Origin: Balanoglossus misakiensis
Taxonomy: Eukaryota > Animalia > Hemichordata
NCBI GenBank assembly: GCA_040954595.2
Contig: CM082583.2
Location: 3,109,060 to 3,173,059, forward strand
Length of the DNA stretch: 64,000 bases
Direction of reading: 5' to 3'
Shown: one piece after another, positions 9,222 to 41,689 of the stretch
How the letters are laid out: the number at the start of each line of letters is the position of its first letter
Numbering within the stretch: the stretch's first letter is position 1
Made by a program: the position numbers and the translations under genes
The notes under the pieces: model-generated
Database searches by the model: none
What the model was told of the DNA's origin: nothing
What the model saw: the letters and a program-made list of their open reading frames with translations, nothing else

Positions 9222-10145
9222 TAAATACGTGCTCTACAAGTACCCATCATTGTAATAGAGAGGCGTGATTTTAACTTTGTCTTTAATAGCTGAGATGTGT
9301 CCTAATTATAGTGGTATCCAAAATGACGGGTTTAACAATATCTGTTCAACATATAAATATACACTCGTATCAGTTATACCGATGCTCAATATGCATAAAG
9401 GTCAAAGGTTACCCAAACTTTTGGAAGCAAATTGTGGTCCCGAACTGACACCATGTTTTCAAAAACAACGACTATCTATCTACCTTACTGGCCAACTTCA
9501 ACATATTGAAGGCTTTGCCAGTGAGTGCACCCTAGTACAGGACATCAAAAATGTCAGTTTTCTGGTTTGGTGAAGTGTAGTGCCAAAGAAGATTTGAAGG
9601 ATTCATGTGTTATATGAAAAAGCTAGAAAGGAGATGAAAAAAGATAAGGGTTCAGCTATATCACAGTCAATTTTAGTATTAGTTCAATGTATATCACGTC
9701 TATATAGTAAGTTGAGGGCGATAGTCTGCACTGAAACCAACATTATTAACAGACCAACACTAAATTACTATTGCACACCACATTGAGAATCACTGTATTA
9801 ATCACAACAAAAGGCAATGTTGGTTTTGATTCCATGATATTTCATAATTTTAATTCTACATTATTCACATAACCTAGAACTGTCATTCATCAAGGTACCT
9901 GTAATTTGCGTTGTACAGCATATTTGTTTGGCTTAAGTTTTCTTTATTATAACCAGACAATAACATTGCTTTTAAATATTCCGTATATTGTTATGGTTTG
10001 GCATTGAATGGTTTAGGCAGAAAAAAACAGTAGGTCAATTATCATCTAAACTTTATACATAAATTATATCTTATACTGACCCACGTTAAGATATTTAATG
10101 GTGGGTCAAAGTTCAATCCAAAAATTTGTGAAGAAATGTTAACAA

Positions 10146-10265
10146 GCTCTTTCTCCTCAACCTCTCTCCCTTCCTCTACCTGTCTCCCGTTCTGTCTGTC
10201 TGTCTCTATCCCTCCCCCCTCCCCCCCTCTCTCTCTCTCTCTCTCCTCCCCGCTCTCTCTCTCTC
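10146..10265 (+). repeat. CT-rich polypyrimidine / (CT)n microsatellite
   Basis: About 120 bp of nearly pure pyrimidines including (CT)n. Confidence 0.85.
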
Positions 10266-10819
10266 ATTTAGAGTGCGTCTGTGCCATCGATATCTCAGGA
10301 ATTGCTTATAAGTTGGAATCGACTTAAACGTACTGATACTAGACAGTCAGACCCTAGAGATTCTGATGGGCGTGGCATGCATATCATTGAAGTGATCCAA
10401 TATCAAAATGTTCCTGTTAATGGTTGTCTATACAACCAACATGACAGCAAACAGATACTTACTTCATCAGACTTGATGAAGTTTACTAAAAGATATATCA
10501 GACATGGTTATGGCGGTACTGAATGTAATGTTATAACATTAGCTCCCGTTTGAAGATCATGACAACTAGATGGGACATTATGATACGACAAACATACTGG
10601 GCAGATAAACAAGGCCGGTCACTACATTCTTCATCACTGGGGCTACTTTTTCAGTGTTGTTTTGTGGATTCTTGTTCTACTTTGTAAAATATTTAAAAAT
10701 GCTGGCACTGTATTTGGTTTTTCAACACAACCCTTTAAAGTAAATGGCATTGTTAATTGCTGAACATTGAATTCAAGTCCGGACCTGAATGCATATTTCA
10801 ACAATAACAGTAGATGTAA

Positions 10820-12097: not shown

Positions 12098-12319
12098 TCG
12101 TGAGCACGAGATACTAAGTCGTGAGCACGAGATACTAAGTCGTGAGCACGAGATACTAAGTCGTGCGCACGAGATACTAAGTCGTGAGCACGAGATACTA
12201 AGTCGTGCGCACGAGATACTAAGTCGTGCGCACGAGATACTAAGTCGTGCGCACGAGATACTAAGTCGTGCGCACGAGATACTAAGTCGTGCGCACGAGA
12301 TAATTATCTCGTGCTCACG
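12098..12319 (+). repeat. 21-bp tandem repeat, about 11 copies (left arm of foldback element)
   Basis: Unit TCGTG(A/C)GCACGAGATACTAAG with palindromic core TCGTGCGCACGA. Confidence 0.95.
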
Positions 12320-12889
12320 AAATAACATCGCATCTTATTGCAATGAACCTAAGGAGTCAAAAGCTTAACTGATCAATGCGGGAGGTTACGTGGCCAGACA
12401 GTTTAATTATTATGTATGTCACATTCAATGTCACCAGAAAGTCACTGCTAAATTTCAGACTAAGGGCTTTCCAGACCTGAGTCTCGAGCATTTAATCTCA
12501 ATGTTTTGAAGAGCGGGTAATAGTTCTAAATTCTGCTTTGCTTTGAGTTAGGTATTGGCTATGTTGCCAAATTTAGAGTTGTAGATTGAAGTTAACTTTA
12601 TCTGATACTCATAGTCTTATTGCTAATGCATCAAATCTTTTCGGAGCAAGAAATAGCAGCTTATCACTCGAAACATATGTATTCACGTCAGCGTTCCGGG
12701 CAATGTGATTCACTCCACCGTCAATGTTTAAGAATAGCACAATATACTAGACTTCCAGTGCTATATAATAACTGCTAACTGCATCATAGTACCCATTCCA
12801 ATCATAAGACCCCAAACGTTTTTTGCTTGATTTGTAATGTGTATTACTTTCCTGTATAAAATCACAGGAATAAACCTTATTTTTATTCT

Positions 12890-14110: not shown

Positions 14111-15810
14111 ATGAACTCAAATAACATACATTTGTCATCTCTGTACTGTCGGGGTTTAAGAGGTGATGAGAAAAGACGACAAATATTTCAGTGGTGTAGA
14201 GACCAAAAACCACATGTATTATTGCTACAAGAAACTTACTGGGACGAACAAATTCAAGATCAAATTTGCAGAGAGTGGAAAGGGAAAATGTTCCATTCTT
14301 TTGGTAATAACCACAGTTAAGGGGTTACGATTTTTGCCGATGAAAAATTGGATCATGAGATAAAGTATTCAAAAAGGGAGACAATTACTTGTATCTTTAG
14401 ATATCAATGGTGAAACATTTACTATAGTTAATATTTACGCACCAAATCAACCCAAAGAAAGGGAGCTTTTCTTTATGTCTTTGAAATGTTAGATTCAAAA
14501 ACATACGAATGGGGATGATTACGTGTTCATTGGAGATGATTTCAACACCGTTTTAGATGCGTAGGTTGATTCATTTGGAACGAAGTGTCATTCTGTTAAA
14601 TCTAAGAAACTGGACGGGATTTTGAAATCTTTTAAATTGTGTGATGTATGGCGAGAAATGAACCCTGCTAAACTACAGTTCACCTGGAGACAAGTTAACC
14701 GTGGAATTGCGAGTAGACTTGACTTTTGGTTTATTCCCCATGACTTTCTTTCTAGTGTTAACTCTGCCGATATTCGGCCGATTATTAGAACAGACCATAA
14801 TGTCATTTCCTAAAAGATTAGCCTGAAAAAATATTGTAAAGGCCCGGGATATTGGAAGCTAAATACGAGTCTACTCAAGGATGATAACTATAGAATAATA
14901 ATAAACAACGTCATAACACAAGCCATAACAAATTATCAAAAACTCTATGATTATAGAAATTTATTAGATTTAATTAAAGTGAAAGTCAAAGAAGGAAGTA
15001 TTAAATATGGAAGGGAAAAGGAAAAATATAAAAAAAGAGACAAGCAATAATTAAAGAACAGCTAAAAGAAATTGAAGATAAATTACTTAGAGATAACAGA
15101 GGAAAGGAAGACCTAATAAACATTTATGAAGACAAAAAGAGGGAACTAACTTAGCTATAAGTAAATAAACTACGTGGAATTCAAATTAGATCCAGGGTGA
15201 AGTGATACGAAGAAGGAGAAAGAAACAGTCGTTATTTCCTGGGACTAGAAAAGAAAAGGCTGATGGTTAATGATAAGTTTATTACAAAGACAGATGAGAT
15301 ATTAGCAGAAGAAAAGGCTTTTTATGAAGAACTTTATAAATCCAAAAGTGTTAATAACAGTAAAGTTAAAAAATACATAAATGACATTAAAATAGAGTCT
15401 AAGTTCAAAGCAAGTGAGGCATTAATGTGTGATGGTAAAGTTTCTGAGGAGGAATGTCTAAAAGCCATGCGCAGAATGAAAAGCAACAAAACACCAGGAC
15501 CAGATAGCATTCCTTTAGAATTTTACAGAGTGCTTTGGAAAAATATAGGTAAGACAGTAGTAGACGCTTTTAATGAAGGTTATAATAAGGGTGCGCTTGC
15601 CAATTCTCAGTGTAATGGTATCATAACGTTAATACATAAAAAGGAGTGTAGGCTTAATCTAAAAAATGGGAGGCCCATATCGCTGCGCAATCATGATTAC
15701 AAAATATTATCAAGCGTGTTAGCTAATAGATTAAATCAGGTTATACCTAAGTTGATTAGTACTGACCAAGTGGGCTATATTAAAAGACGTTTTAGTGGCC
15801 AAAACGTTCG
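14111..15810 (+). pseudogene. Decayed non-LTR retrotransposon ORF2 (L1/Tx1-type): APE endonuclease plus N-terminal part of the reverse transcriptase, 3'-truncated
   Basis: Motifs SLYCRGL, LLQET, VNIYAPN, DFN, SRLDFW, TDH, GPGYWKLN, EEGERNSRYF, KTPGPD, RPISL..DYKIL...LANRL, DQVGYIK; multiple stops and frameshifts; ends before the RT catalytic YADD motif. Confidence 0.9.
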
Positions 15811-15811
15811 G

Positions 15812-15858
15812 CTTAGTATCTCGTGCGCATGACTTAGTATCTCGTGCTCACGAGATAC
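15812..15858 (-). repeat. Internal remnant (2 units) of the 21-bp foldback repeat at the LINE breakpoint
   Basis: CTTAGTATCTCGTGCGCATGACTTAGTATCTCGTGCTCACGAGATAC matches the right-arm repeats. Confidence 0.9.
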
Positions 15859-16921
15859 TGCCTCATAGTATATTATTAGCACTGGCATTATTAACTAAAA
15901 AAGTATGAAGTTTCATACACTTTATTGCTGATGCTTGGTGATTTTCACTTTCATTATGAAAGGAAAGAAGCCATTCCTTTATATTTCAACATGGGTTTCA
16001 ACCATTGTGAAATGTTGGCTTTGAAAGCAAATATCACGATTTTATTCTGAGCTTGTGAAATTTATAGAGAATATTGTACAAGAATGGATTGCACAGACGA
16101 AAACACCAGTCAGATGCCACCGACGTTATATCATACCTAAGCTATCAACCGGTCGGCTATACATAAATACAGATGGATGAAATGTCTTCAACATGGTCCT
16201 GTAATTGTCAAAGAAAGCGCCCAGCTACTTCATCATATAGCTATCAATAAAATATGTCGTTAGCGACGTCGTAACCAGCATGTTCTTGACAAAAAATCCA
16301 AAGAAGTGACAATCCTACACTTCAAATTCTTTTGTCAGAATTAAAATAAGTTGTATTCCTGTGATTTGATACAGGAATGTATTACACATTACAAATCAAG
16401 CAAAAATCGTTTGGGGGTCTTATGATCGGAAGCGGCACTGTGATGCAGTTATTATATAGCACTGGAAGTCTAGTATATTTTGCTATTCTTAAACATTGAC
16501 GGTGGAGTGAATCATATTGTCCGGAACGCTGACGTGAATACATATGTTTCGAGTGATATTCTGCTATTTCTTGCTCCGAGAAGATTCGATGCATTGGCAA
16601 TAAGACTATGAGTATCAGATAAATTTAACTTCAATCCACAACTCTAAATTTGGCGACGTAGCCAATACCCGTTTCAGTGTTTAATAAGTGTATAACTCAA
16701 AGCAAAGCAAAATTTAGAACTATTACCCGATCTTCAAAACATTGAGATTAAATGCTCGAGACTCAGATCTGGAAAGCCCTTAGTCTGAAATTTAGCAGTG
16801 ACTTTCTGGTGACATTGAATGTGACATACATAATAATTAAACTGTCTGGCCAAGTAACCTCCCGCCCTTATCAGTTAAGCTTTGACTCCTTAGGTTCATT
16901 GCAATAACATGCGAAATTATT

Positions 16922-17129
16922 TCGTGAGCACGAGATAATTATTTCGTGAGCACGAGATAATTATCTCGTGAGCACGAGATAATTATCTCGTGCGCACGAC
17001 TTAGTATCTCGTGCTCACGACTTAGTATCTCGTGCGCACGACTTAGTATCTCGTGCGCACGACTTAGTATCTCGTGCTCACGACTTAGTATCTCGTGCTC
17101 ACGACTTAGTATCTCGTGCTCACGAGATA
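16922..17129 (-). repeat. 21-bp tandem repeat, about 10 copies (right arm of foldback element)
   Basis: Reverse complement of the 12098-12319 array. Confidence 0.95.
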
Positions 17130-18884
17130 AAACATTTTTTTTTGCTTTACGAAATGTCCCTTACGGGCTTTCATATATATGGGATTTCAAACAAAGATTA
17201 AATTAGTGATAATGCTTGACCTTGTACTATTGACAGAATGGAATGGACTTAAGCACACCAATACGTTTGGAGCAAAACGTTTGAGAACCAAACCTAGAAA
17301 TACATGTCTAAAACTTCTATTAAATGAATTAATTAAAGAATTTGTTGTTAAAATTTTGAATAGAGTGTAACTTTAGTCACGTTTGTATTAAAAGAGTGTC
17401 TCGTCTGTTTGGGTCAAAGGGAAGTTAGATAAATGTGCAGTGTAGTATTTGTATTTTTCTAGTCAACTCTTTCTAAACTACACTACATAAGACTAAGTTC
17501 ACTGCATGCGGTTTTGACGAGTCAGCCCGCGAGAGCGCCCTCTCGCGGCAAATAGTCCACTTTAAGTGTACGGATACCTTAGCAGAACTGTACACAGTAA
17601 GCGGTAACGGTCACTTTTTCAGGAATTAAATGACAAGAAACTGTCAAATGTCTCTGAGTCTAAGAACAGCTGTACTTCGGAAAGATTTGTATCTCTAGAA
17701 AATTTCATCAAATTTCAGATTTGTCAATCTTCAGTACTGCAGTCATGCGTAGACATCACATTCTCACTGAGAATATCTTAAAGCAATCACTTTACACTGA
17801 ACAAATTATCTGAAGGAAGCGCGCGAGTTTCAGGGAATCTCGGGGTCTCTGCCAGACTAAATACCTCCCGTTCTCTACATCCTCACCGTTTTGTCCTCCA
17901 ATTCTCTGTCTGCTCTGATGTCTTTGTCTGTCCGTATGTTCCTTTATACTAGTATAAGGTATTGTTAGAAAATGAAACCTGTCAGCATTGTATTCATTTC
18001 GGTCTGATTCGAGTATTATACTGATAGCGATTCAAATTCACAATAAAACCGATAATGGATTTTTTATTTTCATTTTGACGCCTTCAAATTCCCTTGCATT
18101 GACAAAACTATACAATAATACCAAATGTAGAAACATCAGTATAACCAATTTTACAGCTGATAACCAATAACAGTATACACATGTTGACTGGCCATGAGGC
18201 ATCAGCATACGTCTGTAACCCGAGGGACTGTGAGTCACCTCCAAAAACGGACGGTTTACTAACTCGAGGGACCCCTCAAATACACCATTTCAGCCGTATA
18301 TGGGTGTATGTAAATTGGCGGTGACCGTACACCTTTAATGTCTAGGGGTGCACCACACATTCAATGTAGTTTCAACTAAATCTGGCCATCTAGTCAAAAA
18401 ATGACAAAATCAAATTGATTAATCACACTTTAAAAAGTGAACATCAATAAACATGGGCTACCGGGCTTTAATTCACGTTCAATCATGTCTGTTATGCTTC
18501 ACGAATGTGATCACTCTGTGAGCGCTGTATGCCGTGAGCCACAGACACCCACCATTTGAAAACGCTCCAGTAACTTTTGCTGGAATTTGGTCGACTTAAG
18601 TCAATCTCTATTGCATGCTATTTGGATTATTTTATTGAATCGTTGAAAGTTATTATTTTTGTCAATTTTTACCAATAAACATGTGCTGTTCGAAATTGCT
18701 TCAGGAACTTTTTTTTTAATTTGCAGAAAAATTAATCGGGTAAATATCATTTGTTTGCTATTTAGATTCCATGATTGAATCATTGCAAGTGCTGTTTTGG
18801 GGGCATTTTTATAAGTATATGTTCTGCGCATGCGCGTTAGCAAGGGGTTTAGTCGAGTCGATGTGATCACCGGCCCGCCATCTT

Positions 18885-19237: not shown

Positions 19238-22200
19238 TAAGTATCATGCCAATCAAATTTGAGTGAAGTGTAGAGTCAACCTTTACGTCAACATTAACCA
19301 GGCCACAGTGCACAGTATCATGCCCATCTACCAAAATTTAAGTGGTGTGTAGAGTCAACATTTGCGTCAACATTAACCAGGTCACAGTGGACAGTATCAT
19401 GCCCATCTACAAAATTTTAAGTGTTGTGTAGAGTCAACCTTTGTGTCAACATTAACCAGGCCACAGTGCACAGTATCATGCCCATCTACCAAAATTTAAG
19501 TGTTGTGTAGAGTCAACCTTTGCGTCAACATTAACCAGGCCATAGTGCACAGTATCATGCCCATCTACCAAAATTTAAGTGGTGTGTACAGTCAACCTTT
19601 GCGTCAACATTAACCAGGCCATAGTGCACAGTATCATGCCCATCTACCAAAATTTAGGCGGTGTGTACAGTCAACCTTTGCGTCAACATCAACCATGCCA
19701 TAGTGCACAGTATCATGCCCATCTACCAAAATTTAAGTGGTGTGTACAGTCAACCTTTGCGTCAACATTAACCAGGCCATAGTGCACAGTATCATGCCCA
19801 TCTACCAAAATTTAAGTGGTGTGTAGAGTCAACCTTTGCGTCAACATTAACAAGGCCATAGTGGCCATCTACCAAAATTAAAGTGGTGTGTAGAGTCAAC
19901 GTTTGCGTCAACATTAACAAGGCCATAGTGGCCATCTACCAAAATTTAAGTGGTGTGTAGAGTCAACCTTTGCGTCAACATTAACCAGGCCATAGTGCAC
20001 AGTATCATGCCCATCTACCAAAAATTAAGTGGTGTGTAGAGTCAACCTTTGCGTCAACATTAACCAGGCCACAGTGCACAGTATCATGCCCATCTACCAA
20101 AATTTAAGTGTTGTGTAGAGTCAACCTTTGCGTCAACATTAACCAGGCAATAGTGCACAGTATCATGCCCATCTACCAAAATTTAAGTGGTGTGTAGAGT
20201 CAACCTTTGCGTCAACATTAACCAGGCCATAGTGCACAGTATCATGCCCATCTACCCAAATTAAAGTGGTATGAAGAGTCAACGTTTGCGTCAACATTAA
20301 CCAGGCCATAGTGCACAGTATCATGCCCATCTACCCAAATTAAAGTGGTGTGTAGAGTCAACGTTTGCGTCAACATTAATCAGGCCACAGTGGACAGTAT
20401 CATGCCCATCTACCAAAATTTAAGTGGTGTGTAGAGTCAACGTTTGCGTCAACATTAACAAGGCCATAGTGGCCATCTACCCAAATTAAAGTGGTATGTA
20501 GAGTCAACGTTTGCGTCAACATTAACAAGGCCATAGTGGCCTTCTACCAAAATTTAAGTGGTGTGTAGAGTCAACGTTTGCGTCAACATTAACAAGGCCA
20601 TAGTGGCCATCTACCAAAATTTAAGTGGTGTGTAGAGTCAACCTTTGCGTAAACATTAACCAGGCCACAGTGGACAGTATCATGCCCATCTACCAAAATT
20701 TAAGTGGTGTGTAGAGTCAACGTTTGCGTCAACATTAACAAGGCCATAGTGGCCATCTACCAAAATTTAAGTGGTGTGTATAGTCAACCTTTGCGTCAAC
20801 ATTAACAAGGCCATAGTGGCCATCTACCAAAATTTAAGTGGTGTGTAGAGTCAACCTTTGCGTCAACATTAACCAGGCCACAGTGGACAGTATCATGCCC
20901 ATCTACCAAAATTAAAGTGGTGTGTAGAGTCAACCTTTGCGTCAACATTAACAAGGCCATAGTGGCCATCTACCAAAATTTAAGTGGTGTGTAGAGTCAA
21001 CCTTTGCGTCAACATTAACCAGGCCATAGTGCACAGTATCATGCCCATCCACCAAAAATTAAGTGGTGTGTAGAGTCAACCTTTGCGTCAACATTAACCA
21101 GGCCACAGTGCACAGTATCATGCCCATCTACCAAAATTTAAGTGTTGTGTAGAGTCAACCTTTGCGTCAACATTAACCAGGCAATAGTGCTCAGTATCAT
21201 GCCCATCTACCAAAATTTAAGTGGTGTGTAGAGTCAACCTTTGCGTCAACATTAACCAGGCCATAGTGCACAGTATCATGCCCATCTACCCAAATTAAAG
21301 TGGTATGAAGAGTCAACGTTTGCGTCAACATTAACCAGGCCATAGTGCACAGTATCATGCCCATCTACCCAAATTAAAGTGGTGTGTAGAGTCAACGTTT
21401 GCGTCAACATTAACCAGGCCACAGTGGACAGTATCATGCCCATCTACCAAAATTTAAGTGGTGTGTAGAGTCAACGTTTGCGTCAACATTAACAAGGCCA
21501 TAGTGGCCATCTACCCAAATTAAAGTGGTATGTAGAGTCAACGTTTGCGTCAACATTAACAAGGCCATAGTGGCCTTCTACCAAAATTTAAGTGGTGTGT
21601 AGAGTCAACGTTTGCGTCAACATTAACAAGGCCATAGTGGCCATCTACCAAAATTTAAGTGGTGTGTAGAGTCAACCTTTGCGTAAACATTAACCAGGCC
21701 ACAGTGGACAGTATCATGCCCATCTACCAAAATTTAAGTGGTGTGTAGAGTCAACGTTTGCGTCAACATTAACAAGGCCATAGTGGCCATCTACCAAAAT
21801 TTAAGTGGTGTGTATAGTCAACCTTTGCAGTCCGAACGCAGGTCAGCCATTTGACCGTTAATTGCCCAGTTTTCTAGTTCTGGTGACGCCCTCAACGTTC
21901 TGTCGTACACGTAACCGGAAGTGGCATGCGAAAGTCCCGCGCTTTTTTTAATGCCAAGTTTAACAAGCAAGGACCGCAGTTCAATGATTCAAATTGATAA
22001 AATGGCCAAAATTATATCTAAATTACACATCTGTGTGGTTTTTTGGTGGAAAAACATGTTTTCTTTGCAAAAATGACCGAATTACAGAGTGACCCCAGAA
22101 CAACTAAAATCAAAACATGCCGCACTTCCGGGTTTTTTCGAACTGCCGCACTTTTATATAAAAAGGAATTTTTAAATTTAAATATGATTTTCAGTGAATT

Positions 22201-22858
22201 TGATATATTTTGCAATAAAATTAAAAAAATCATGATGCAACCCCCAGAAGCCTTTGCTCAAGCGCTCCTCGTAAATTCGCCCCGATGTGACGCAATAGCC
22301 TCAGATTGGCGGTATACTTGGTCCGGTTACCAGCGTTGAATCGTCGCTCTGCAATCATCCAATCTTGCATTGCACGATGGCTCGTAATTGACCACTTTTT
22401 TCGCTGTATTTTAGCGTATAAGTATTTTTTCCTCTCTTTCTATCCTTCTTGTATTCCTCTCTTTCTATCTCTGTTTTATGAAAACGTGCCGTACGTTTGT
22501 TGCGAGAGTAGAATAGAGGTGCTTGGCGCGCGCGCTTGTCTCGACTGTCATAGCCGGTCAGTCTACGGACTGTCTACGGTTATGGGGACATTGGCACTAG
22601 TATTTGTGGTCGGTTTATACTTTTTGTTCGTTTCACGGAGTTTTTGTTACTCTGGTTGGATTATTGGAGGTTGGTTTTGTTTTGGCGGCAATAATTGTCA
22701 TTGGCGCGCTTTGTCGATTTGGAAGGTTGTAGTCTACAGATCGTGGACGGTCAGACTGGTCTAGTCTTTCGTTGTTGGTGTTATTATTATATTATAGTTC
22801 GACTGTGTTTTAAGGGATTTAGTCCAATCAGTCGGTGTTGTCATTGTCTGGTTGCAGT

Positions 22859-25800
22859 ATGGGGTTAGGCAGCCTCATCAGTTGTGTTGGCCGTCAAGCT
22901 AGCAATTTTGCTATGCATTTGTCAAGTGTCCATAAACAGACAGTTTCTCGAACTAACAGAAACAAATTTAGAATTTCTGTGTTAACTGCAAACAACACCT
23001 GGCAAAATCTTGTCAGCAAACATAACTGCAGTCCTGCTATTTCATTTGGCACTGTGCTCAAGGTTTTAAAACATAAATTGCAGGGTGCCAATCCATGGCG
23101 ACATCCTGAAACATGTACAGAGTACAATGAATTTGATTTTTTATGTGGTTATGTATTGATGATATATATATCCTCAGTTTTCCTTGCCCATGAGATACTT
23201 GTTAAAAAAAAGTTCCCATTTCATGTCACATTGCCAGATCAGTCTGTTGTCTCGTACATATGTGCTTCACCACTGATACCATCATCTGTTATTACAAACT
23301 ATATACTAGAGAAAGTGGGAATCCCATGCACTGCATATAAATTGATTGCTAATGGGAAACCCATTGTCGAGAGGTCGATACTTGACCATACTGTTCATAG
23401 TAGTCTGTCTCTAAATATAACTGGGTTTGGGGGAGGGAAAAAATCTGGTGATTTAGTACATCCAGGTAAATCATGTGGCCCATGTGTTGTCTGTGGTAGT
23501 GATTCAAAGACCAGATATTATCATTTATGTTGCAAAGAAAATGACAACATGGTTCAACACATAATTGTTAATTACAAAACAAGATTGAACGAGCCTTTAT
23601 CCAAAAGTGATTGCATATGTAGCAGTTGTGACAGGAAAATGATTAGGAAGTTCAATTCACCTGTTGATGTGAGTCAATCAAAGCGCTCAAAAACAAGTAC
23701 ATCACAGTGTACTCTGAGCAAATTCAATTTATGTACAGCAAAGGCAGATCACGATGGTGCTCCCATTGCAACTTATGAACAACTGTTCTCTATGCTCAAA
23801 GTAGCAGCAAACTTTGAAGGCCTGCCAAAAGATATGCCATTATGCCACCACCATTACTGTGAAATCAACAATTTTGTGAAGGGCAAGGTTCCAGTGCCAT
23901 GTAGCATTTGTTCGGTGCTAATTCCAGCCAAACAAAGAAAGTATAAGATAAATGATCCAGACGTAATCATGAAATTTATTAAACACATTAAGATTGATGT
24001 TGACTTTGTCAGGAAGGATGATATTATTTGTGGTGCATGCAGTACGGCTTGTTCAAAGTACATTAGGACAGAATTTGGAGTTGACAGGGTAAAAGCAGCA
24101 TCAAAAGTATTCATGCGATCACTGTGTGAAGGTTACAAAGATGTAACATGCTGTGGTGAAAATTCTATTGAAGAATTTGCATTGGCATCGGCAATTTTAT
24201 TTGTGTGCAAAGAGTTTGAAGAGGATCGGGCAGTTTTTCTTTCATCTGCATATAGTGTTTACTTGAAAGTACTGCAAAGAAATACTGCCAAGTATGGAAC
24301 ATCTGATAATTATGAGTCAATGAAAAAGAATAGGAAATGGCTGATGGTAAAACTTCAGGGAGTATTTGGAGATTGTATGGTTTCCCATTCAAATCCTATG
24401 TACAAAAGGTTGGGGACATTACTAAGGAGGTGTGGGTCTTCACTGGAGGACTGCATGCTTTTCACTCTGTCTGCTGCAAAAAGCAAAATGGAAAATTTAG
24501 AAAAACAAATAAATTCTCTAGACGAACTGAACAAGTCACTGCTTGCAGATATGCCCTCTCATGACGTTAATGCACATCTTCGTGTGGCTGGCGAGTTTCT
24601 GAAATCTAAAGTCTGTGAAATGACAGAGAAGTTAATGTCAAAACAAAGTAAAGATGAGTTTGACATCACGACAATGTGTTTAAGTGACTTTGTTTCACAA
24701 GACATTGATCCATATCTGTGGAATTTTATTTTCAAGCTAACCATGACTCAAACTGAACAGGCTGATTTCTTTCAAAATGAAATTGACACGTTTGACTGGA
24801 AGGAATGTTATACTCTAAATATTAATGACAAAACGCAGAATTATCACCTTGGTCGTTTAATGAAGCGTTTATATATTGTCTCATGCATTATATATGCTAA
24901 CAATGCAGAGTGTAATTATCCATTGCATATGGCATTGGCTGATGTTGTCGACAAATTCAGTAATTCATCTTCTGAATGTTTGAAAATTTTGAACAGATTT
25001 GGTGCTGTGTCGTCCAAAGACAGCTTACAGCGATATAAGGTTGGCATATCTGAGAAAACAATGCTAGAAGGCCCGAAGATTAGTAATGAAACTTTCACTA
25101 CTGTCTCTGTTGACAACGTGGACAAACTGAGTTCGTATGCAACAGTCAAATCCAGCCAATTAGGGAGGGGATTTAATGGAACGTCTGTTCAGGCGGTAGA
25201 GAGTAAACCATCCCTGTCTCTTACTGATGAAGACTTTCCACCTTTCCGCAGACAATCATTGAAAACAAAAGCTGGAGAGTATCTTAAAGTTGTTGCAGTC
25301 AGCCATGATAATTCATTGTTAAGAGCAATTACAGCTCACAGCATTTGCTCACTGAGACACTGCAGTCGTGATGAAGTTGGAAAACCCACCTCAGTTGAGC
25401 TACTTGCACAAGAGAACAACTTAATGGCTAAAATCAGAAATGAACTCGTAGATTGTCTGGAACAAAACAGAGAACACATTGAACAACTTGACCCAACTAT
25501 GTATGATTCTTTTCTGCTTAAAGGTGACTCTCCTGATAAATATATTGACTTTGATCATAGATGTGTGGAAGTAAGGAATGGTGCTACTTGTGGTGTTCCT
25601 GAAATAATAGCTCTGTGTTACAGCACTGCCCAAGCTGTTGTCATATATAGAGAGGATAATGGTCAATATACTGAAATCTGCAAATATGGAGCTGGTTGTT
25701 TTCCAGATTCCCAGCCAATTCAACTCTTGCTTTCACATCATCAAGGTAATGAATATTACCAATTACTAATGAGTGAAAGCTTATATTATGATGAGCAATC

Positions 25801-28800
25801 ATATCTTACTGTGGAAAGCACACTTTCTCACTGGCAACGAATAAACTTGCACAATGAGCGTGATTTTTCATTCAGTGAACTGTTGTGTCCCCCTGAATCA
25901 TTTGTACAGAACAAAGTTGCACTCAAATCTTCCCGGCGAACAATTGCGCCAGTAATGATTGAAAATTATTACAGTACATTGTCGGGTATGGATGATGAAA
26001 GTGGACGTAATGCCAGTAATGAAAGTCTGTCTTTGGAGGATTTCAAAGTTACACCTGTAGAGAAAGCCGAATACAAAAAGCTTCAGTCTGACTGCTTTGT
26101 GTACATACTTGAAAAAAATGCCATACAAAATGATGATCCTGCTAGGTACATTTCCAGTTTGAAAGAAAGAATGTCAATGTTCACAACAGAAGAGACCGAA
26201 GTTTCGAATATTGTTTATTTGGATGTGCTTGACCTGCCAGCTGACAATATAGAAACCATGAAAGCTGTTCTGAATAAACTATATACCCAGTTTGGTGTTG
26301 GCAAGTACATTAATTATCTGGTGGTAGTCGGAGATGGCAAAACCTATGACTACTTACTAAAATTAAAGAAACAATATGGATTAGATTTGGCATGGTTACT
26401 ACCTTACCCTGGAGACTGGCACATTCTTAAAACCTTCCAAGCTGTGTTAATGAAAATATATCTAGATGCTGGGTTGAAGGAACTTGTCACTCTTTTCCAT
26501 TTTGGAAAAACTGCTTCATCAGTAATGCAAGCTACCAACTTTGACAGGACCCACCGATTTTTACTGCAAGTATGGGAAGCAATATACAGAGTGGAAATCG
26601 ATAAATTCATGAAATACAGGTGTGGTGATCAGCAATCATGCATGCTATCTGAAAAAGATATATATGAAGCATGCATTGAAAACCTGCAAAGAGAGCCTGA
26701 TCATTTTGATTTGCTGGATGATACAGCAGGCTTTGCAGAAATTAGAGAATCACTCAAAGAAAAACTATCTGGCTTTGAGGCAGAGTTTGACAGCTTTACG
26801 CAGAACTGCATGGCAAAAAACAGCACCTGGAAATTTTGGCATGATTTCATTCACAGGGACATGATGACATATATTGCACTGTACATATCTATGAGAAATA
26901 GAAATTTCAATTTGCGTAATGCAGCTCTCAAGGAAATGACACCACTGTTTCACAGTTTTGACAGGTTGAATTACCTGAGGCTTGTACCTCAGCATCTTGC
27001 GGATTTAAAATGCTTCCCTCCATCTGTTGTCAATTATCTTTACAGTGGGGGTTTTGCTGTCAGTCTGTCTGGTAGAAAGTGGAAATGTGTTGCCCTGGAC
27101 GAATGTCATGAAATGTGCATCAATAAAGATGTGAAAGAAGCCATGCACTCCACACAAAGAGAAGCACTTTCCAGGCTCACTTTCTATCTTCCCCACAGGG
27201 CATTGCTTCACAAAAATATCAAGAAGCAAATATTTAATGATGCAAGTATGTCATCATCTCATGAGTCACTCTCTGAAAGGAAGCATACAGAAATGAACAT
27301 CAGAGCATATATAGACAAATTAGTAGGATCAAATATACTTTTTGATCCTTCATCTTGTGGCACTGACTGTCTTAGTCATCTGTTTTCCAATAAAACACTC
27401 AATGGTAAGGATGCACATGATTTATTGACATTCAGGACTGTGGGAGAAAAATCTATGAATGATTACATCTCATGTGTGATTTTATTTAATCCCCAGTCAA
27501 AATTGCCTCCACGACACCGTAAAAACTTGAAGACTTTCACAGTAAAGCAACCTAATGTAGCAAAACAAAAGCTGCAAGTGAAAGACCAAAAACTGGTTAA
27601 TCATATCCTACGGAAAAAAATAGCATATTCTAAGGCTACAGGTGTTCCCATTGATGATCTGAGTCAGTTTATTCAGCTTCCTAGGGCCATTGCTGCAGTG
27701 GATGGTTTGCCTGAAAAGGGACAAAAGGCAAGTGTGGGTAAAGTACTGAAAGGCAGATACCCATCTGCCTTTCATTCTGAATTGCCCCGAAGTTTCACAC
27801 CAGAATGTGTGGTGTTGGAGGGTATGTTTCTTATCAATACAACACCGTTAGCATTCCATCAGACATTTCATGACTATGTTTCCTTCCTATGTAGAAGATG
27901 GGTAAAGCCATATTTCTGTAAACTCAATGCTAGTGAGGTGCATATTGTTTTTGACGATCCTCAAAGACATGGATCAAGTCCAAAGGATATAGAAAGAACA
28001 AGACGAGACACTGGAAAAGAAGAGACAGTAGTGTTTGATACTCTCACTTTACAGCAGCCTTTACCTACAAATTGGAGGAAGTTTTTAGGGGTCAGACAAC
28101 ATAAAAGACTTCTTGTCAATCTTCTGAGTGATGCTATGTTAAAATACTCGAAAACATATCTATCAGGTAACCAGAAGCTTGTTACTGCAGGAGGTTTTGA
28201 TGGTGAGCAAAGAGACACAGCACAACAGATAACTGCTCATAATGGTGCATCAGACAGTCCAATGTACTATTCCAATCATGAAGAGAGTGACTCAAGGGTA
28301 TGGTACCATGCTCTGAAATCATGCTTTCAAAACATTCTGATCTATTCCCCAGATACAGATGTTTACCATATTGGTCTACCTTTCCTAGAGGGAAATGCTA
28401 AAAATGTATTCATACAGTTACGCTCAGTGCCATTTGATAATGTCTTTCTTTCCATGTCTACATTGATTGAGTGTATGAAACATGATCTATCACTAAGCTC
28501 TCTAACGTCCAGTAAGCTTGCCAACATATTTCAAACTCTATTCATATGTACTGGGTGTGACTACATTTCATTCTTTAGAGGCTGTGGGAAAAAAGCCTTT
28601 CTAGATGTGTTTTTCAAGGAAGCATCATTTATAACTGGTACTGAAAATGAGTCCACAGTTGGAACACTGAATGCAGATAAAGAGTCTAAAGACTTGGGTC
28701 TCTTGGCCTTTTATCGGCTGATAGGGTGTGTGTACTACTACAAACATTCATCAGCATTTCCAGGGTATGGAGGGCCACATGAACATTTCAATTCACTCAT

Positions 28801-29455
28801 CAGTGGGACAAGAACACCACTTCAGGTTCATCATGAATGGCTTGATGACATCAGGAACAGAATATGGGACAGGATTGACAGTGAGGTCGGATTTGTACCA
28901 TCAAACGAGGCCTTAAAATATCACTGGTACAGGTCATGTTGGGTATCATGTTTGTGGGGAAATGCTGATAAAAAGGATGTCAGTATACATGTACCTGCAA
29001 TAACAGATTTTGGGTGGAAACTTGTTGAAGGCAAAATAAGTATTGTGTGGGATTCTAATGAAAATCTGGAAAAAGTAAAGAAAAATGTTGAGTTTTGGAC
29101 TAATGGATGCAAATGCAAAAAGTCCAAATGTACAAACAAATTGTGCAAATGCGTGAAATCAGGGAACATTTGTGGACCAGGTTGTAAATGTTTACACTGT
29201 GAAAACACACCAAATCAACCAAACTCGGCAACTGCCTTATCCCCTGAATATGTAACAGCCTTGGAGGAGGCAGAAGATGATGACGACAATTATGAGCAAA
29301 GTCTTTTGAGGGATATTGAAGAAATATTGGTGGATGAAGACACTGAGTCAGTCATTGACAATACGGAGGCAGTAGCTTTACCAGAGTCTGTCACTGATCT
29401 GGTGGAATGTGGGGGCATCCACAGTGACATAGATGGAAATATTGATGAAGACTAA
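22859..29455 (+). CDS. Academ-type transposase-XPG fusion protein with ubiquitin-like, Cys-rich, OTU-like and C-terminal Cys8/CXC domains (frame open from 22835, first ATG at 22859, true start uncertain)
   Basis: Uninterrupted 2206-codon frame. Transposase motifs SVDNVD (D760), VVGDGKTY (D1167), PGDWH, LDECHE (E1426). XPG/FEN-like motifs VVLEGM, HIVFD, NHEESDSR, SPDTDV, GCDYISFFRGCGKK. Tail CKCKKSKCTNKLCKCVKSGNICGPGCKCLHC followed by an acidic C-terminus. Numbering is from 22835. Confidence 0.92.
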   Translation: MGLGSLISCVGRQASNFAMHLSSVHKQTVSRTNRNKFRISVLTANNTWQNLVSKHNCSPAISFGTVLKVLKHKLQGANPWRHPETCTEYNEFDFLCGYVLMIYISSVFLAHEILVKKKFPFHVTLPDQSVVSYICASPLIPSSVITNYILEKVGIPCTAYKLIANGKPIVERSILDHTVHSSLSLNITGFGGGKKSGDLVHPGKSCGPCVVCGSDSKTRYYHLCCKENDNMVQHIIVNYKTRLNEPLSKSDCICSSCDRKMIRKFNSPVDVSQSKRSKTSTSQCTLSKFNLCTAKADHDGAPIATYEQLFSMLKVAANFEGLPKDMPLCHHHYCEINNFVKGKVPVPCSICSVLIPAKQRKYKINDPDVIMKFIKHIKIDVDFVRKDDIICGACSTACSKYIRTEFGVDRVKAASKVFMRSLCEGYKDVTCCGENSIEEFALASAILFVCKEFEEDRAVFLSSAYSVYLKVLQRNTAKYGTSDNYESMKKNRKWLMVKLQGVFGDCMVSHSNPMYKRLGTLLRRCGSSLEDCMLFTLSAAKSKMENLEKQINSLDELNKSLLADMPSHDVNAHLRVAGEFLKSKVCEMTEKLMSKQSKDEFDITTMCLSDFVSQDIDPYLWNFIFKLTMTQTEQADFFQNEIDTFDWKECYTLNINDKTQNYHLGRLMKRLYIVSCIIYANNAECNYPLHMALADVVDKFSNSSSECLKILNRFGAVSSKDSLQRYKVGISEKTMLEGPKISNETFTTVSVDNVDKLSSYATVKSSQLGRGFNGTSVQAVESKPSLSLTDEDFPPFRRQSLKTKAGEYLKVVAVSHDNSLLRAITAHSICSLRHCSRDEVGKPTSVELLAQENNLMAKIRNELVDCLEQNREHIEQLDPTMYDSFLLKGDSPDKYIDFDHRCVEVRNGATCGVPEIIALCYSTAQAVVIYREDNGQYTEICKYGAGCFPDSQPIQLLLSHHQGNEYYQLLMSESLYYDEQSYLTVESTLSHWQRINLHNERDFSFSELLCPPESFVQNKVALKSSRRTIAPVMIENYYSTLSGMDDESGRNASNESLSLEDFKVTPVEKAEYKKLQSDCFVYILEKNAIQNDDPARYISSLKERMSMFTTEETEVSNIVYLDVLDLPADNIETMKAVLNKLYTQFGVGKYINYLVVVGDGKTYDYLLKLKKQYGLDLAWLLPYPGDWHILKTFQAVLMKIYLDAGLKELVTLFHFGKTASSVMQATNFDRTHRFLLQVWEAIYRVEIDKFMKYRCGDQQSCMLSEKDIYEACIENLQREPDHFDLLDDTAGFAEIRESLKEKLSGFEAEFDSFTQNCMAKNSTWKFWHDFIHRDMMTYIALYISMRNRNFNLRNAALKEMTPLFHSFDRLNYLRLVPQHLADLKCFPPSVVNYLYSGGFAVSLSGRKWKCVALDECHEMCINKDVKEAMHSTQREALSRLTFYLPHRALLHKNIKKQIFNDASMSSSHESLSERKHTEMNIRAYIDKLVGSNILFDPSSCGTDCLSHLFSNKTLNGKDAHDLLTFRTVGEKSMNDYISCVILFNPQSKLPPRHRKNLKTFTVKQPNVAKQKLQVKDQKLVNHILRKKIAYSKATGVPIDDLSQFIQLPRAIAAVDGLPEKGQKASVGKVLKGRYPSAFHSELPRSFTPECVVLEGMFLINTTPLAFHQTFHDYVSFLCRRWVKPYFCKLNASEVHIVFDDPQRHGSSPKDIERTRRDTGKEETVVFDTLTLQQPLPTNWRKFLGVRQHKRLLVNLLSDAMLKYSKTYLSGNQKLVTAGGFDGEQRDTAQQITAHNGASDSPMYYSNHEESDSRVWYHALKSCFQNILIYSPDTDVYHIGLPFLEGNAKNVFIQLRSVPFDNVFLSMSTLIECMKHDLSLSSLTSSKLANIFQTLFICTGCDYISFFRGCGKKAFLDVFFKEASFITGTENESTVGTLNADKESKDLGLLAFYRLIGCVYYYKHSSAFPGYGGPHEHFNSLISGTRTPLQVHHEWLDDIRNRIWDRIDSEVGFVPSNEALKYHWYRSCWVSCLWGNADKKDVSIHVPAITDFGWKLVEGKISIVWDSNENLEKVKKNVEFWTNGCKCKKSKCTNKLCKCVKSGNICGPGCKCLHCENTPNQPNSATALSPEYVTALEEAEDDDDNYEQSLLRDIEEILVDEDTESVIDNTEAVALPESVTDLVECGGIHSDIDGNIDED

Positions 29456-29725
29456 ATGACAAAACAGAGCTTATATCTTTTTTTACATTCATTATCTGAT
29501 TGAAGACGTCACAAATGGGGGACAAGTGCACATTGTAATATCAGCAATAATGCACTGAAAATTGACTAATCGTAGAAACATGTCTGTGGGAACAAAGTAA
29601 TACAACGTTTTACAGCCAGATATAGAAATTTAATTATTTTAATCAAAAATATTCTAACAGAAGCCATATTGTGTACACTGGTACCATGACTACGCCAGTC
29701 GCGTTCACATAATTAAGACGAGACA

Positions 29726-30258
29726 GGTTCACAAGAAAGTGCAGCACTTTTTTATAATACGTTCTTAACACTTCAAATTTCACCCAGGGTTAGTCTGATA
29801 AATAATCTAACTTGTGATGTGAAAATTCTCGTGCAACCTTTAGGATTTTTTGAGATACGGGTGGGTAAACTTGAAAAATGTTACAATAATACACGTTCAC
29901 AGGAAAGGGAAGGGTTCACAAGAAAGTGCAGCACTTTTTTATAATACGTTCTTAACACTTCAAATTTCACCCAGGGTTAGTCTGATAAATAATCTAACTT
30001 GTGATGTGAAAATTCTCGTGCAACCTTTAGGATTTTTTGAGATACGGGTGGGTAAACTTGAAAAACGTTACAATAATACGCGTTCATAGGAAAGTGAAGG
30101 GTTCACAAGAAAGTGCAGCACTTTTTTATAAAACGCCCGTCACACTTCAAATTTCGCCCAGCGTTAGACTTATAAATTACCTAACTTGCTACGTAAAAAT
30201 TATCGTGCAACCTTCAAGATTTTTTGAGATACGGGTCGGTAAACTTGAAAAACGTCAA
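29726..30258 (+). repeat. Three direct repeats with about 187-bp period in the 3' subterminal region of the Academ element
   Basis: GGTTCACAAGAAAGTGCAGCACTTTTTTATAA recurs at about 29726, 29913 and 30100; the third copy is more diverged. Confidence 0.95.
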
Positions 30259-33200
30259 AATACCTCAGCTTTTCATCCAAGGTCGATCGCTGGGAAAAAC
30301 GTCTACAGTCCAATCCTATCGTGCTAAAGACGCGATAATCTGGCAACATGTCCGTATGGTTCTTGTTATATCAATAGTGTTGTCATTTCAAGGTAAAAAC
30401 TCTCGAATCGGACAAAATCGCCCGTGTTTTCCGAAGGTTAGCGCAACAACATAAATAAGTGTCCATTTTGAAAATAGTCACGTGACTTTTTCCAATAAAC
30501 GCCCTCATCGTCGGGTGGTTGCGTTCGGGCTGTTGCGTCAACATTAACAAGGCCATAGTGGCCATCTACCAAAATTTAAGTGGTGTGTAGAGTCAACCTT
30601 TGCGTCAACATTAACAGACCATAGCGGCCATCTACCAAAATTAAGTGTTGTGTAGAGTCAACCTTTGCGTCAACATTAACCAGGCCACAGTGGACAGTAT
30701 CATACCCATCTACCAAAATTAAAGTGGTGTGTAGAGTCAACCTTTGCGTCAACATTAACAAGGCCATAGTGCACAGTATCATGCCCATCTACCAAAAATT
30801 AAGTGGTGTGTAGAGTCAACCTTTGCGTCAACATTAACCAGGCCACAGTGCACAGTATCATGCCCATCTACCAAAATTTAAGTGGTGTGTAGAGTCAACG
30901 TTTGCGTCAACATTAACAAGGCCATAGTGGCCATCTACCCAAATTAAAGTGGTATGTAGAGTCAACGTTTGCGTCAACATTAACAAGGCCATAGTGGCCT
31001 TCTACCAAAATTTAAGTGGTGTGTAGAGTCAACGTTTGCGTCAACATTAACAAGGCCATAGTGGCCATCTACCAAAATTTAAGTGGTGTGTAGAGTCAAC
31101 CTTTGCGTAAACATTAACCAGGCCACAGTGGACAGTATCATGCCCATCTACCAAAATTTAAGTGGTGTGTAGAGTCAACGTTTGCGTCAACATTAACAAG
31201 GCCATAGTGGCCATCTACCAAAATTTAAGTGGTGTGTATAGTCAACCTTTGCGTCAACATTAACAAGGCCATAGTGGCCATCTACCAAAATTTAAGTGGT
31301 GTGTAGAGTCAACCTTTGCGTCAACATTAACAGACCATAGCGGCCATCTACCAAAATTAAGTGTTGTGTAGAGTCAACCTTTGCGTCAACATTAACCAGG
31401 CCACAGTGGACAGTATCATACCCATCTACCAAAATTAAAGTGGTGTGTAGAGTCAACCTTTGCGTCAACATTAACAAGGCCATAGTGGCGATCTACCCAA
31501 ATTAAAGTGGTGTGTAGAGTCAACGTTTGCGTAAACATTAACCAGGCCACAGTGGACAGTATCATGCCCATCTACCAAAATTTAAGTGGTGTGTAGAGTC
31601 AACGTTTGCGTCAACATTAACAAGGCCATAGTGGCCATCTACCAAAATTTAAGTGGTGTGTAGAGTCAACGTTTGCGTCAACATTAACAAGGCCATAGTG
31701 GCCATCTACCAAAATTTAAGTGGTGTGTATAGTCAACCTTTGCGTCAACATTAACAAGGCCATAGTGGCCATCTACCAAAATTTAAGTGGTGTGTAGAGT
31801 CAACCTTTGCGTCAACATTAACAGACCATAGCGGCCATCTACCAAAATTAAGTGTTGTGTTGAGTCAACCTTTGCGTCAACATTAACCAGGCCACAGTGG
31901 ACAGTATCATGCCCATCTACCAAAATTAAAGTGGTGTGTAGAGTCAACCTTTGCGTCAACATTAACAAGGCCATAGCGGCCATCTACCAAAATTTAAGTG
32001 TTGTGTGGAGTCAACCATTGCGTCAACATTAACCAGGCCACAGTGCACAGTATCATGCCCATCTACCAAAATTTAAGTGTTGTGTAGAGTCAACCTTTGC
32101 GTCAACATTAACCAGGCCACAGTGCACAGTATCATGCCCATCTACCAAAATTTAACTGGTGTGTAGAGTCAACCATTGCGTCAACATTAACCAGGCCACA
32201 GTGCACAGTATCATGCCCATCTACCAAAATTTAAGTGTTGTGTAGAGTCAACCATTGCGTCAACATTAACCAGGCCACAGTGCACAGTATCATGCCCATC
32301 TACCAAAATTTAACTGGTGTGTAGAGTCAACCTTTGCGTCAACATTAACCAGGCCACACTGCACAGTATCATGCCCATCTACCAAAATTTAAGTGTTGTG
32401 TAGAGTCAACCATTGCGTCAACATTAACCAGGCCACAGTGCACAGTATCATGCCCATCTACCAAAATTAAGTGTTGTGTAGAGTCAACCTTTGCGTCAAC
32501 ATTAACCAGGCCACAGTGCACAGTATCATGCCCATCTACCAAAATTTAAGTGTTGTGTAGAGTCAACGTTTGCGTCAACATTAACCAGGCCACAGTGCAC
32601 AGTATCATGCCCATCTACCAAAATTTAAGTGTTGTGTAGAGTCAACGTTTGCGTCAACATTAACCAGGCCACACTGCACAGTATCATGCCCATCTACCAA
32701 AATTTAAGTGTTGTGTAGAGTCAACCATTGCGTCAACATTAACCAGGCCACAGTGCACAGTATCATGCCCATCTACCAAAATTTAAGTGTTGTGTAGAGT
32801 CAACGTTTGCGTCAACATTAACCAGGCCACAGTGCACAGTATCATGCCCATCTACCAAAATTTAAGTGTTGTGTAGAGTCAACCTTTGCGTCAACATTAA
32901 CCAGGCCACAGTGCACAGTATCATGCCCATCTACCAAAATTTAAGTGTTGTGTAGAGTCAACGTTTGCGTCAACATTAACCAGGCCACAGTGCACAGTAT
33001 CATGCCCATCTACCAAAATTTAAGTGTTGTGTAGAGTCAACGTTTGCGTCAACATTAACCAGGCCACACTGCACAGTATCATGCCCATCTACCAAAATTT
33101 AAGTGTTGTGTAGAGTCAACCATTGCGTCAACATTAACCAGGCCACAGTGCACAGTATCATGCCCATCTACCAAAATTAAGTGTTGTGTAGAGTCAACCT

Positions 33201-39200: not shown

Positions 39201-40544
39201 CGTCAACATTAACAAGGCCACAGTGGATAATATCAAGCCCATCTACCAAAATTTAAGTGGTGTGTAGAGTCAACCTTTGCGTCAACATTAACAAGGCCAT
39301 AGTGGCGATCTACCCAAATTAAAGTGGTGTGTAGAGTCAACGTTTGCGTCAACATTAACCAGGCCACAGTGGACAGTATCATGCTCATCTACCAAAATTT
39401 AAGTGGTGTGTAGAGTCAACCTTTGCGTCAACATTAACAAGGCCATAGTGGCCATCTACCCAAATTAAAGTGGTATGTAGAGTCAACGTTTGCGTCAACA
39501 TTAACAAGGCCATAGTGGCCATCTACCAAAATTTAAGTGGTGTGTAGAGTCAACGTTTGCGTCAACATTAACAAGGCCATAGTGGCCATCTACCAAAATT
39601 TAAGTGGTGTGTAGAGTTAACCTTTGCGTCAACATTAACCAGGCCACAGTGGACAGTATCATGCCCATCTACCAACATTTAAGTGGTGTGTAGAGTCAAC
39701 GTTTGCGTCAACATTAACAAGGCCATAGTGGCCATCTACCAAAATTTAAGTGGTGTGTAGAGTCAACGTTTGCGTCAACATTAACAAGGCCATAGTGGCC
39801 ATCTACCAATATTTAAGTGGTGTGTAGAGTCAACCTTTGCGTCAACATTAACAAGGCCATAGTGGCCATCTACCAAAATTAAGTGTTGTGTAGAGTCAAC
39901 CTTTGCGTCAACATTAACCAGGCCACAGTGGACAGTATCATGCCCATCTACCAAAATTAAAGTGGTGTGTAGAGTCAACCTTTACGTCAACATTAACAAG
40001 GCCATAGCGGCCATCTACCAAAATTAAAGTGTTGTGTAGAGTCAACCTTTGCGTCAACATTAACCAGGCCATAGTGCACAGTATCATGCCCATCTACCAA
40101 AATTTAACTGGTGTGTAGAGTCAACCTTTGCGTCACATTAACCAGGACACAGTGCACAGTATCATGCTCATCTACCAAAATTTAAGTGTTGTGTAGAGTC
40201 AACCTTTGCATCAACATTAACCAGGCCATAGTGCACAGTATCATGCCCATCTACCAAAATTTAAGTGGTGTGTAGAGTCAACCTTTGAGTCAACATTAAC
40301 AAGGCCATAGCGGCCATCTACCAAAATTTAAGTGGTGTGTAGAGTTAAATTTTGCGTCAACATTAACCAGGCCACAGTGGACAGTATCATGCCCATCTAC
40401 CAAAATTTAAGTGGTGTGTAGAGTCAACGTTTGCGTCAACATTAACAAGGCCATAGTGGCCATCTACCAAAATTTAAGTGGTGTGTAGAGTCAACGTTTG
40501 CGTCAACATTAACAAGGCCATAGTGGCCATCTACCAATATTTAA

Positions 40545-41339: not shown

Positions 41340-41689
41340 TTAAGTGGTGTGTAGAGTCAACCTTTGCGTCAACATTAACAAGGCCATAGTGGCCATCTAC
41401 CAAAATTAAGTGTTGTGTAGAGTCAACCTTTGCGTCAACATTAACAAGGCCATAGCGGCCATCTACCAAAATTTAAGTGGTGTGTAGAGTTAAATTTTGC
41501 GTCAACATTAACCAGGCCACAGTGGACAGTATCATGCCCATCTACCAAAATTTAAGTGGTGTGTAGAGTCAACGTTTGCGTCAACATTAACAAGGCCATA
41601 GTGGCCATCTACCAAAATTTAAGTGGTGTGTAGAGTCAACGTTTGCGTCAACATTAACAAGGCCATAGTGGCCATCTACCAATATTTAA

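Follow-up and report, generated by a model that had tools for sequence, protein, structure and literature searches.

Why should a DNA transposase carry, close to its N-terminus, a segment that resembles ubiquitin and ends in Gly-Gly? The locus that raises this question lies in a 64,000-nucleotide stretch from the hemichordate Balanoglossus misakiensis (contig CM082583.2, positions 3,109,060 to 3,173,059; hereafter ‘the window’). A preliminary description had pointed to a 74-residue ubiquitin-like segment at 23213-23434, and proposed that the transposase might be made as a precursor and cut after the di-glycine by a host protease; the segment does indeed lie in frame, within an open reading frame (ORF) of 2,206 codons (22835-29455). 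Residues are numbered here, as there, from the GTG at 22835, with the first ATG falling at 22859 (Table 1).

The ORF, the sole long one in the window, belongs to a transposon whose insertion is cleanly delimited, as the satellite unit picks up again exactly on either side of it. The 13 bases at 21828-21840 agree with the reverse complement of 30520-30532 at 12 of 13 positions, and lie inside a 3-bp duplication; AcademX elements have a target duplication of 3 or 4 bp, according to the accessible part of one report (PMC10045372). Amongst 68 related DNA loci, most of them from one assembly, CAGTC...GACTG ends with a 4-bp duplication were found at 20, and a 3-bp duplication at one; the inverted-repeat scan was seeded with four exact bases and so misses the window’s own ends, which were read directly.

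AcademX elements encode one long ORF, comprising a transposase core, a putative XPG-type nuclease and a C-terminal cysteine cluster, and are defined by that nuclease rather than by a helicase. The window’s ORF has the cysteine cluster, as a Pfam TCR match, and a core with conserved acidic motifs at residues 759, 1166 and 1422, for which a catalytic role seems likely; no helicase family appears in the Pfam scan of the ORF. The putative nuclease region has no sequence match in the PDB and produces Atlas leads that all score below 0.9 (Pox_G5 0.83, XPG_N/I 0.79-0.80). We class the element as AcademX-type by its ends, duplication and cysteine cluster; the Pfam match of its core is to DUF6589. A 23-bp piece of the subterminal 187-bp repeat recurs in direct orientation at 22141-22163, near the left end, and is a possible candidate for a transposase binding site.

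Table 1. Features of the transposon and its ORF, in window coordinates.
Feature	Position	Strand	Evidence or detail
Left target-site duplication TTG, 3 bp	21825..21827	.	By comparison with unbroken satellite unit
Whole AcademX-type DNA transposon, 8,705 bp, in 79/67-bp satellite array	21828..30532	+	
Left terminal inverted repeat, 13 bp	21828..21840	+	Begins CAG
Intact single ORF, 2,198 aa from first ATG	22859..29455	+	A at -3, G at +4
Leader, 118 aa	22859..23212	+	Hydrophobic stretch 23132-23188; N-x-F-x-x-L motif 23126-23143
Ubiquitin-like beta-grasp domain (aa 127-200)	23213..23434	+	PDB/profile searches, AlphaFold2, Foldseek, VIA-align
Invariant Gly-Gly (Gly199-Gly200), predicted cleavage site after Gly200	23429..23434	+	16/16 carriers; cleavage predicted
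Short basic linker followed by N-terminal Cys/His zinc-finger region; mature transposase predicted to start here	23435..24094	+	
Transposase core	25109..27232	+	DUF6589, Pfam E 9.7e-12, aa 1062-1466
OTU-fold insertion inside transposase core	25268..25789	+	AlphaFold2 pLDDT 78.8; Foldseek
Putative XPG/FEN-type nuclease domain	27740..28780	+	Atlas leads; acidic motifs aa 1815, 1840, 1907
C-terminal CXC/TCR cysteine cluster	29102..29209	+	Pfam TCR E 8.8e-7
187-bp subterminal tandem repeat, 2.9 copies	29726..30262	.	
Right terminal inverted repeat	30520..30532	-	
Right target-site duplication TTG	30533..30535	.	

At the level of sequence, the likeness of the segment to ubiquitin is above chance, with 16 of 72 aligned residues identical and a local score of 50 that was reached by none of 5,000 shuffles. 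A comparison with the Pfam ubiquitin clan, which the preliminary description had put forward as a check, gives no match above the gathering score: the window’s domain has none at E<=5, and amongst its relatives P0037 alone gets to E 0.051, the domain being too diverged for these models. As a single query against the PDB it reaches ubiquitin variants at E 0.04-0.19, and a 14-sequence family profile retrieves single ubiquitin chains at E 1.5e-4 to 4e-4, in an alignment that places Gly-Gly in register with ubiquitin G75-G76. The anticipated beta-grasp fold is what AlphaFold2 predicts, with a mean pLDDT of 84.6; Foldseek ranks ubiquitin, ISG15 and SUMO highest for this model (E from 1.9e-4 upwards), and VIA-align again matches it best to ubiquitin, superposing 71 residues at rmsd 2.2 (Z 10.6). 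Integral ubiquitin-like domains (UBLs), namely those of Dsk2, BAT3 and Rad23, come within about 1.5 Z of ubiquitin, so that the fold alone cannot tell modifiers and integral UBLs apart.

The domain represents a ubiquitin-like family missed by Pfam and left unnamed in gene annotations. An Atlas search with leader plus domain yields leads below 0.8 only, mostly to ubiquitin families, and the matches listed for the domain profile against 1.84 billion proteins are mostly polyubiquitin-type proteins; five of the best 150 have a single domain, and all five (P0069, P0007, P0095, P0100, P0185) are members of the family. No further carriers came from a word-based profile search, nothing was added by a word-based search with the N-terminal region amongst shorter proteins, and no relatives were found in viral contigs.

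The homologue set comprises 76 proteins of 1,213-3,861 residues, the named ones coming from crinoid, sea cucumber, brittle star, lancelet, mussel and sponge, and 15 of these carry the domain. The carriers were initially chosen by eye and many are near kin (a profile built from all 15 had found no further carriers). To reduce this bias, profiles were rebuilt in leave-one-out fashion, omitting near kin and the last 12 columns; for each of the 11 held-out proteins the top match coincided with the position of the domain, and eight of the 11 matches had E<0.01. The domain is 13-23% identical to that of the window in the 12 carriers measured, set against 37-43% for the transposase core, its degree of conservation being close to that of the zinc-finger region. 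Just three alignment positions are invariant, one internal Gly and the Gly-Gly itself. Conservation of the di-glycine, on which the preliminary description had staked its reading, holds in all 15 carriers, hence in 16 of 16 with the window, where a third Gly follows directly, as it does in 8/11 non-redundant carriers.

The site also has a fixed relation to the transposase proper. In all 14 carriers where the distance can be measured, Gly-Gly lies 5-11 residues ahead of the first zinc finger; P0037 and P0071 possess the site with no detectable zinc finger. The zinc-finger region, for which zinc binding is suggested by its Cys/His pattern, has a profile match in 48 of the 76 homologues, and its start is intact in 42, 29 of which lack the domain. 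These domain-less proteins are informative: 21 of the 29 start no more than 25 residues from the zinc finger (median 18; database starts are gene-caller choices), four have long leaders of 101-265 aa, and in all 29 Gly-Gly is absent from the 25 residues ahead of the zinc finger. Amongst the DNA loci, 31/68 have a stop codon in frame 13-66 codons ahead of the zinc finger, though there may be exons further upstream; L066 has 142 open codons there without the domain, which amongst these loci was found in L018 only. Most domain-less relatives thus start near the site, and a cut after Gly-Gly would therefore give about the same N-terminus.

What precedes the domain is variable, with leaders ranging from 14 to more than 1,200 residues amongst carriers. 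For the window’s own leader we found no homologue and no credible Pfam match. The preliminary description had spoken of a ‘hydrophobic N-terminal 200 aa’, which overstates the case; one stretch is hydrophobic, and over 19 residues the hydrophobicity of the leader is highest at aa 100-118 (Kyte-Doolittle 1.86), within a region that is not broadly so. The motif N-x-F-x-x-L was counted 11 times amongst 3,212 leader residues, as against 8 times in 28,655 residues elsewhere, and is present in 9/16 carriers (the window, P0015, P0026, P0028, P0031, P0032, P0039, P0067 and P0071); these are mostly kin, and the window’s copy may be due to chance. The leaders of P0229, P0233, P0234, P0236 and P0015 contain Ser/Gly/Lys-rich repeats of a few dozen residues in variable number, sitting between esterase and ubiquitin-like domain, so that the leaders reach as much as 1,240 residues and stay open in frame throughout.

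In three sequence clusters the ubiquitin-like domain is preceded, within the same protein, by an SGNH esterase, which stands at the protein start in P0026 and P0032 (by Pfam) and in P0229, P0233 and P0234 (by our own profile, E about 1e-22). Elsewhere the esterase has an ORF of its own next to the transposase, as in L066 (Pfam E 3.6e-12) and L021 (E 1.5e-6); that of L018 was spotted by inspection and served as a profile seed, and so is not an independent case. No element ends were found at L066, L021 or L018, where the membership of these ORFs in the elements is accordingly unproven, and no esterase was found in the window’s element. Just downstream of the L018 transposase, the ORF at 9147-10406 combines an esterase-like N-terminal part with a NADAR domain (Pfam E 3.9e-32). 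In P0071, a mussel gene model, residues 1-200 ahead of the ubiquitin-like domain are assigned to PF04843, a deubiquitinase family of herpes-tegument type; this is a precomputed match which our Pfam scan did not reproduce, and the annotation may fuse neighbouring elements.

A second module bears on the question of which enzyme might act at the site. The span from the first to the second acidic motif of the core is 408 residues in the window and roughly 160-280 in most relatives, the additional sequence including a segment with a predicted OTU fold. The best Foldseek match to this insert is yeast Otu2 (E 4.6e-5), the matches listed all being OTU proteases or their complexes, and P0037 has a Pfam OTU match above the cut-off; lectin matches to the same region were repeat artefacts, rejected once the OTU fold had been predicted. 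An OTU profile matches 17 of the 76 homologues, 11 of which also carry the ubiquitin-like domain. P0007 and P0037, which have the ubiquitin-like domain, retain the catalytic Cys and His, and so does P0041, which lacks that domain, whilst the window has Ser827 and Tyr974 at these positions; judged by sequence, the window’s OTU is apparently inactive, and the same applies to 14 of the 17 matches. The link between the two modules is also incomplete, since P0041 has an intact OTU without the ubiquitin-like domain and four of the 15 carriers have no OTU (P0004, P0069, P0015 and P0062, the last possibly through a gap in the gene model).

A quick IQ-TREE phylogeny (no bootstrap, midpoint root) was built from 40 rows, made up of those with an intact zinc-finger start and enough of the core together with P0037, with five short rows dropped. 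All 13 carriers in the tree fall within one 21-row clade (SH-aLRT 98), where the presence of the domain requires 4 changes, compared with 11.2 in shuffles; this is compatible with a history of one gain and three losses. The two domain-less subgroups nearest the window, six rows in all, are also without the OTU, and five of the six start 8-10 residues before the zinc finger.

Synthesising these findings, an invariant Gly-Gly, placed at the end of a diverged ubiquitin fold and where relatives begin, is most simply accounted for as a processing site. We consider it probable, from sequence, predicted structure and analogy, that the protein is a cleavable precursor, in which a deubiquitinase-type protease would cut after Gly-Gly and free a transposase with a defined N-terminus. 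Leader and ubiquitin-like domain would be translated together with the transposase as one protein, and the cut would fall after Gly200, such that one mRNA would yield two proteins, a variable leader and the transposase; the leader product would be an SGNH esterase in some relatives and, in the window, 118 unexplained residues. We suggest that the original protease may have been the element’s own OTU domain. The precursor proposed in the preliminary description is strengthened by the domain-less relatives that start near the site, with cleavage itself still a prediction; its assumption of a host protease had overlooked the clade’s own OTU fold, apparently dead in this copy. As the window’s OTU has lost both Cys and His, cutting would here depend either on a host enzyme or on a relative whose active OTU works in trans.

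The cutting enzyme is the weak point of the precursor model, as the Leu/Arg tail of ubiquitin is not kept. The equivalents of Arg72 and Arg74 are Arg in 0/16 carriers, and that of Leu73 is Gly in 9/16, Leu in 5/16 and Ala in 2/16; the window’s own tail, I-T-G-F-G-G, is not of the Leu-Arg-Leu-Arg type read by canonical host deubiquitinases. Phe-Gly ahead of the last glycines recalls the ATG8/ATG4 cleavage site, a possibility we rejected with Phe present in 1/16 carriers; N-myristoylation of either N-terminus was likewise dropped, the Ser being out of register with the consensus. A private OTU would explain the drift of the tail, yet 14/17 OTUs look inactive while Gly-Gly persists, which leaves a tolerant host protease, active relatives in trans, or a vestige. 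We also raise, as a tentative and rather doubtful extension, the idea that this clade of animal cut-and-paste transposons evolved a virus-like self-processing polyprotein, in which one ORF held both a ubiquitin-like substrate and an OTU protease, private to the element and co-adapted, and that later lineages turned to host enzymes or dropped the module; the transposase would then have released itself from its cargo, in many cases an SGNH esterase protein.

It is unlikely, in our estimation, that the site is now simply a vestige, once cut by the element’s own OTU in an ancestor, with the OTU dead here and the domain persisting as a folded, uncut spacer. Ser and Tyr in place of the OTU Cys and His, a tail far from that of ubiquitin, and closest relatives devoid of either domain would all suit such a history; against it, carriers whose OTU is degenerate or missing all retain Gly-Gly, in lineages with cores only 37-43% identical, which points to ongoing selection, and the window’s ORF and element ends are intact.

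We rate as quite improbable that the domain is an integral UBL that stays uncut, binding proteasome receptors or ubiquitin readers or aiding folding, and so tuning the level of transposase, with the glycines serving as a hinge. The window does keep the equivalents of Ile44 and Ile36, the integral UBLs named above are structurally close, and the frequent third glycine would be in keeping with a hinge. Nonetheless, an uncut interaction domain fits poorly, because the Leu8/Ile44/Val70 patch is not conserved: the window has Thr/Ile/Asn at these positions, Ile44 is matched by Ile in 1/16 carriers, and Leu8 and Val70 are kept in 0/16. The domain is moreover internal, behind leaders of greatly differing length, and a hinge needs no two glycines exactly in the register of the ubiquitin C-terminus. 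A proteasome-targeting UBL, which the preliminary description had offered as its alternative, is weakened in the same way, this hydrophobic patch not being kept in the family while Gly-Gly is.

Ubiquitin E1 reads Arg72, and it is very improbable that the freed leader and domain are conjugated to other proteins as a transposon-made modifier, to be removed again by the OTU; cleavage would leave a free C-terminal Gly-Gly, and the OTU fold lies within the same ORF, but no E1, E2 or E3 was found in the element and Arg72 is absent in 16/16 carriers. Least credible of all is that the segment goes untranslated in the window’s element, the true message starting or splicing further downstream, as the lack of a leader homologue might hint, given that the 118 upstream codons are open (as in only 4/20,000 shuffles) and follow an ATG whose context is favourable, that a crude splice scan of 21828-23460 gives no donor and one acceptor-like site, at 22414, and that the domain, conserved about as well as the zinc-finger region, is in frame in homologues including the RefSeq models P0004 and P0007.

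Precedents for cleavable precursors of this kind are familiar. The divergent ubiquitin-like domain of FUBI-eS30 is cut at its di-glycine by USP36, and Gly-Gly mutants stay uncut, as stated in the available part of PMC8354635; a divergent domain can therefore still be cut by a host enzyme. USP36 anchors ubiquitin itself via Leu71/Leu73 and Arg72/Arg74 (PMC10611586, in excerpt). FUBI-eS30 (FAU), ubiquitin-eS31 and ubiquitin-eL40 likewise consist of a ubiquitin fold and di-glycine followed by the basic N-terminus of a partner; the window differs in that its domain is internal behind a variable leader, is 22% identical to ubiquitin with Gly at Leu73, and has a transposase as its partner, with cleavage predicted from sequence. 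In cytopathogenic pestiviruses an internal ubiquitin is the processing signal by which host hydrolases make an authentic downstream N-terminus (PMC8310069, in the portion accessible); those insertions are recent captures of near-intact ubiquitin, whereas the domain described here has diverged strongly and is an old, fixed component of a transposon clade.

Amongst transposons, OTU and VTD deubiquitinase domains, some inactive, occur in the ORFs of Helitrons and Helentrons, and have been proposed to protect transposon proteins from degradation; the accessible sections of the two papers concerned (PMC9741609, PMC6431247) describe no built-in ubiquitin-like substrate, and these elements belong to a different class from that of the window. 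Transposon OTU domains were reported as untested in 2022 (PMC9741609, in part). Such domains are known, and their substrates are not; here, a candidate substrate lies in the same ORF as the protease fold, and the proposal is thus directly testable with two small domains.

The window’s element shares with AcademX its short terminal inverted repeats, 3-bp duplication, one long ORF, core and cysteine cluster, may share the XPG-type nuclease, and differs in its additional leader, ubiquitin-like domain with Gly-Gly and OTU-fold insertion. In the literature covered, which did not take in Kojima 2020 or Repbase entries, we found no description of a leader, ubiquitin-like domain or OTU in Academ, nor any account of ubiquitin-style maturation of a transposase; the novelty of the proposed ubiquitin-like cut site in a transposase is therefore provisional. 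Should cleavage prove real, this would be a eukaryotic DNA transposase matured by ubiquitin-style processing, which would provide host or element with a switch for transposition and explain how cargo proteins come to be carried in one ORF.

Finally, several other features of the window may be recorded. Upstream of the main ORF and in another frame, 22306-22764 encodes a hydrophobic ORF of 152 codons with no Pfam match, which is probably a by-product of T-rich sequence. The satellite array broken by the transposon extends over 19255-48229, and includes 143-bp inverted segments at 40541-42488. Tandem repeats of 21 bp with an internal palindrome occur at 12098-12324, 15814-15871 and 16908-17130, and are possibly parts of a small non-autonomous element; a short ORF at 15206-15832 is cut off by the 21-bp repeat and, judged by eye from its motifs, resembles the start of a LINE reverse transcriptase.
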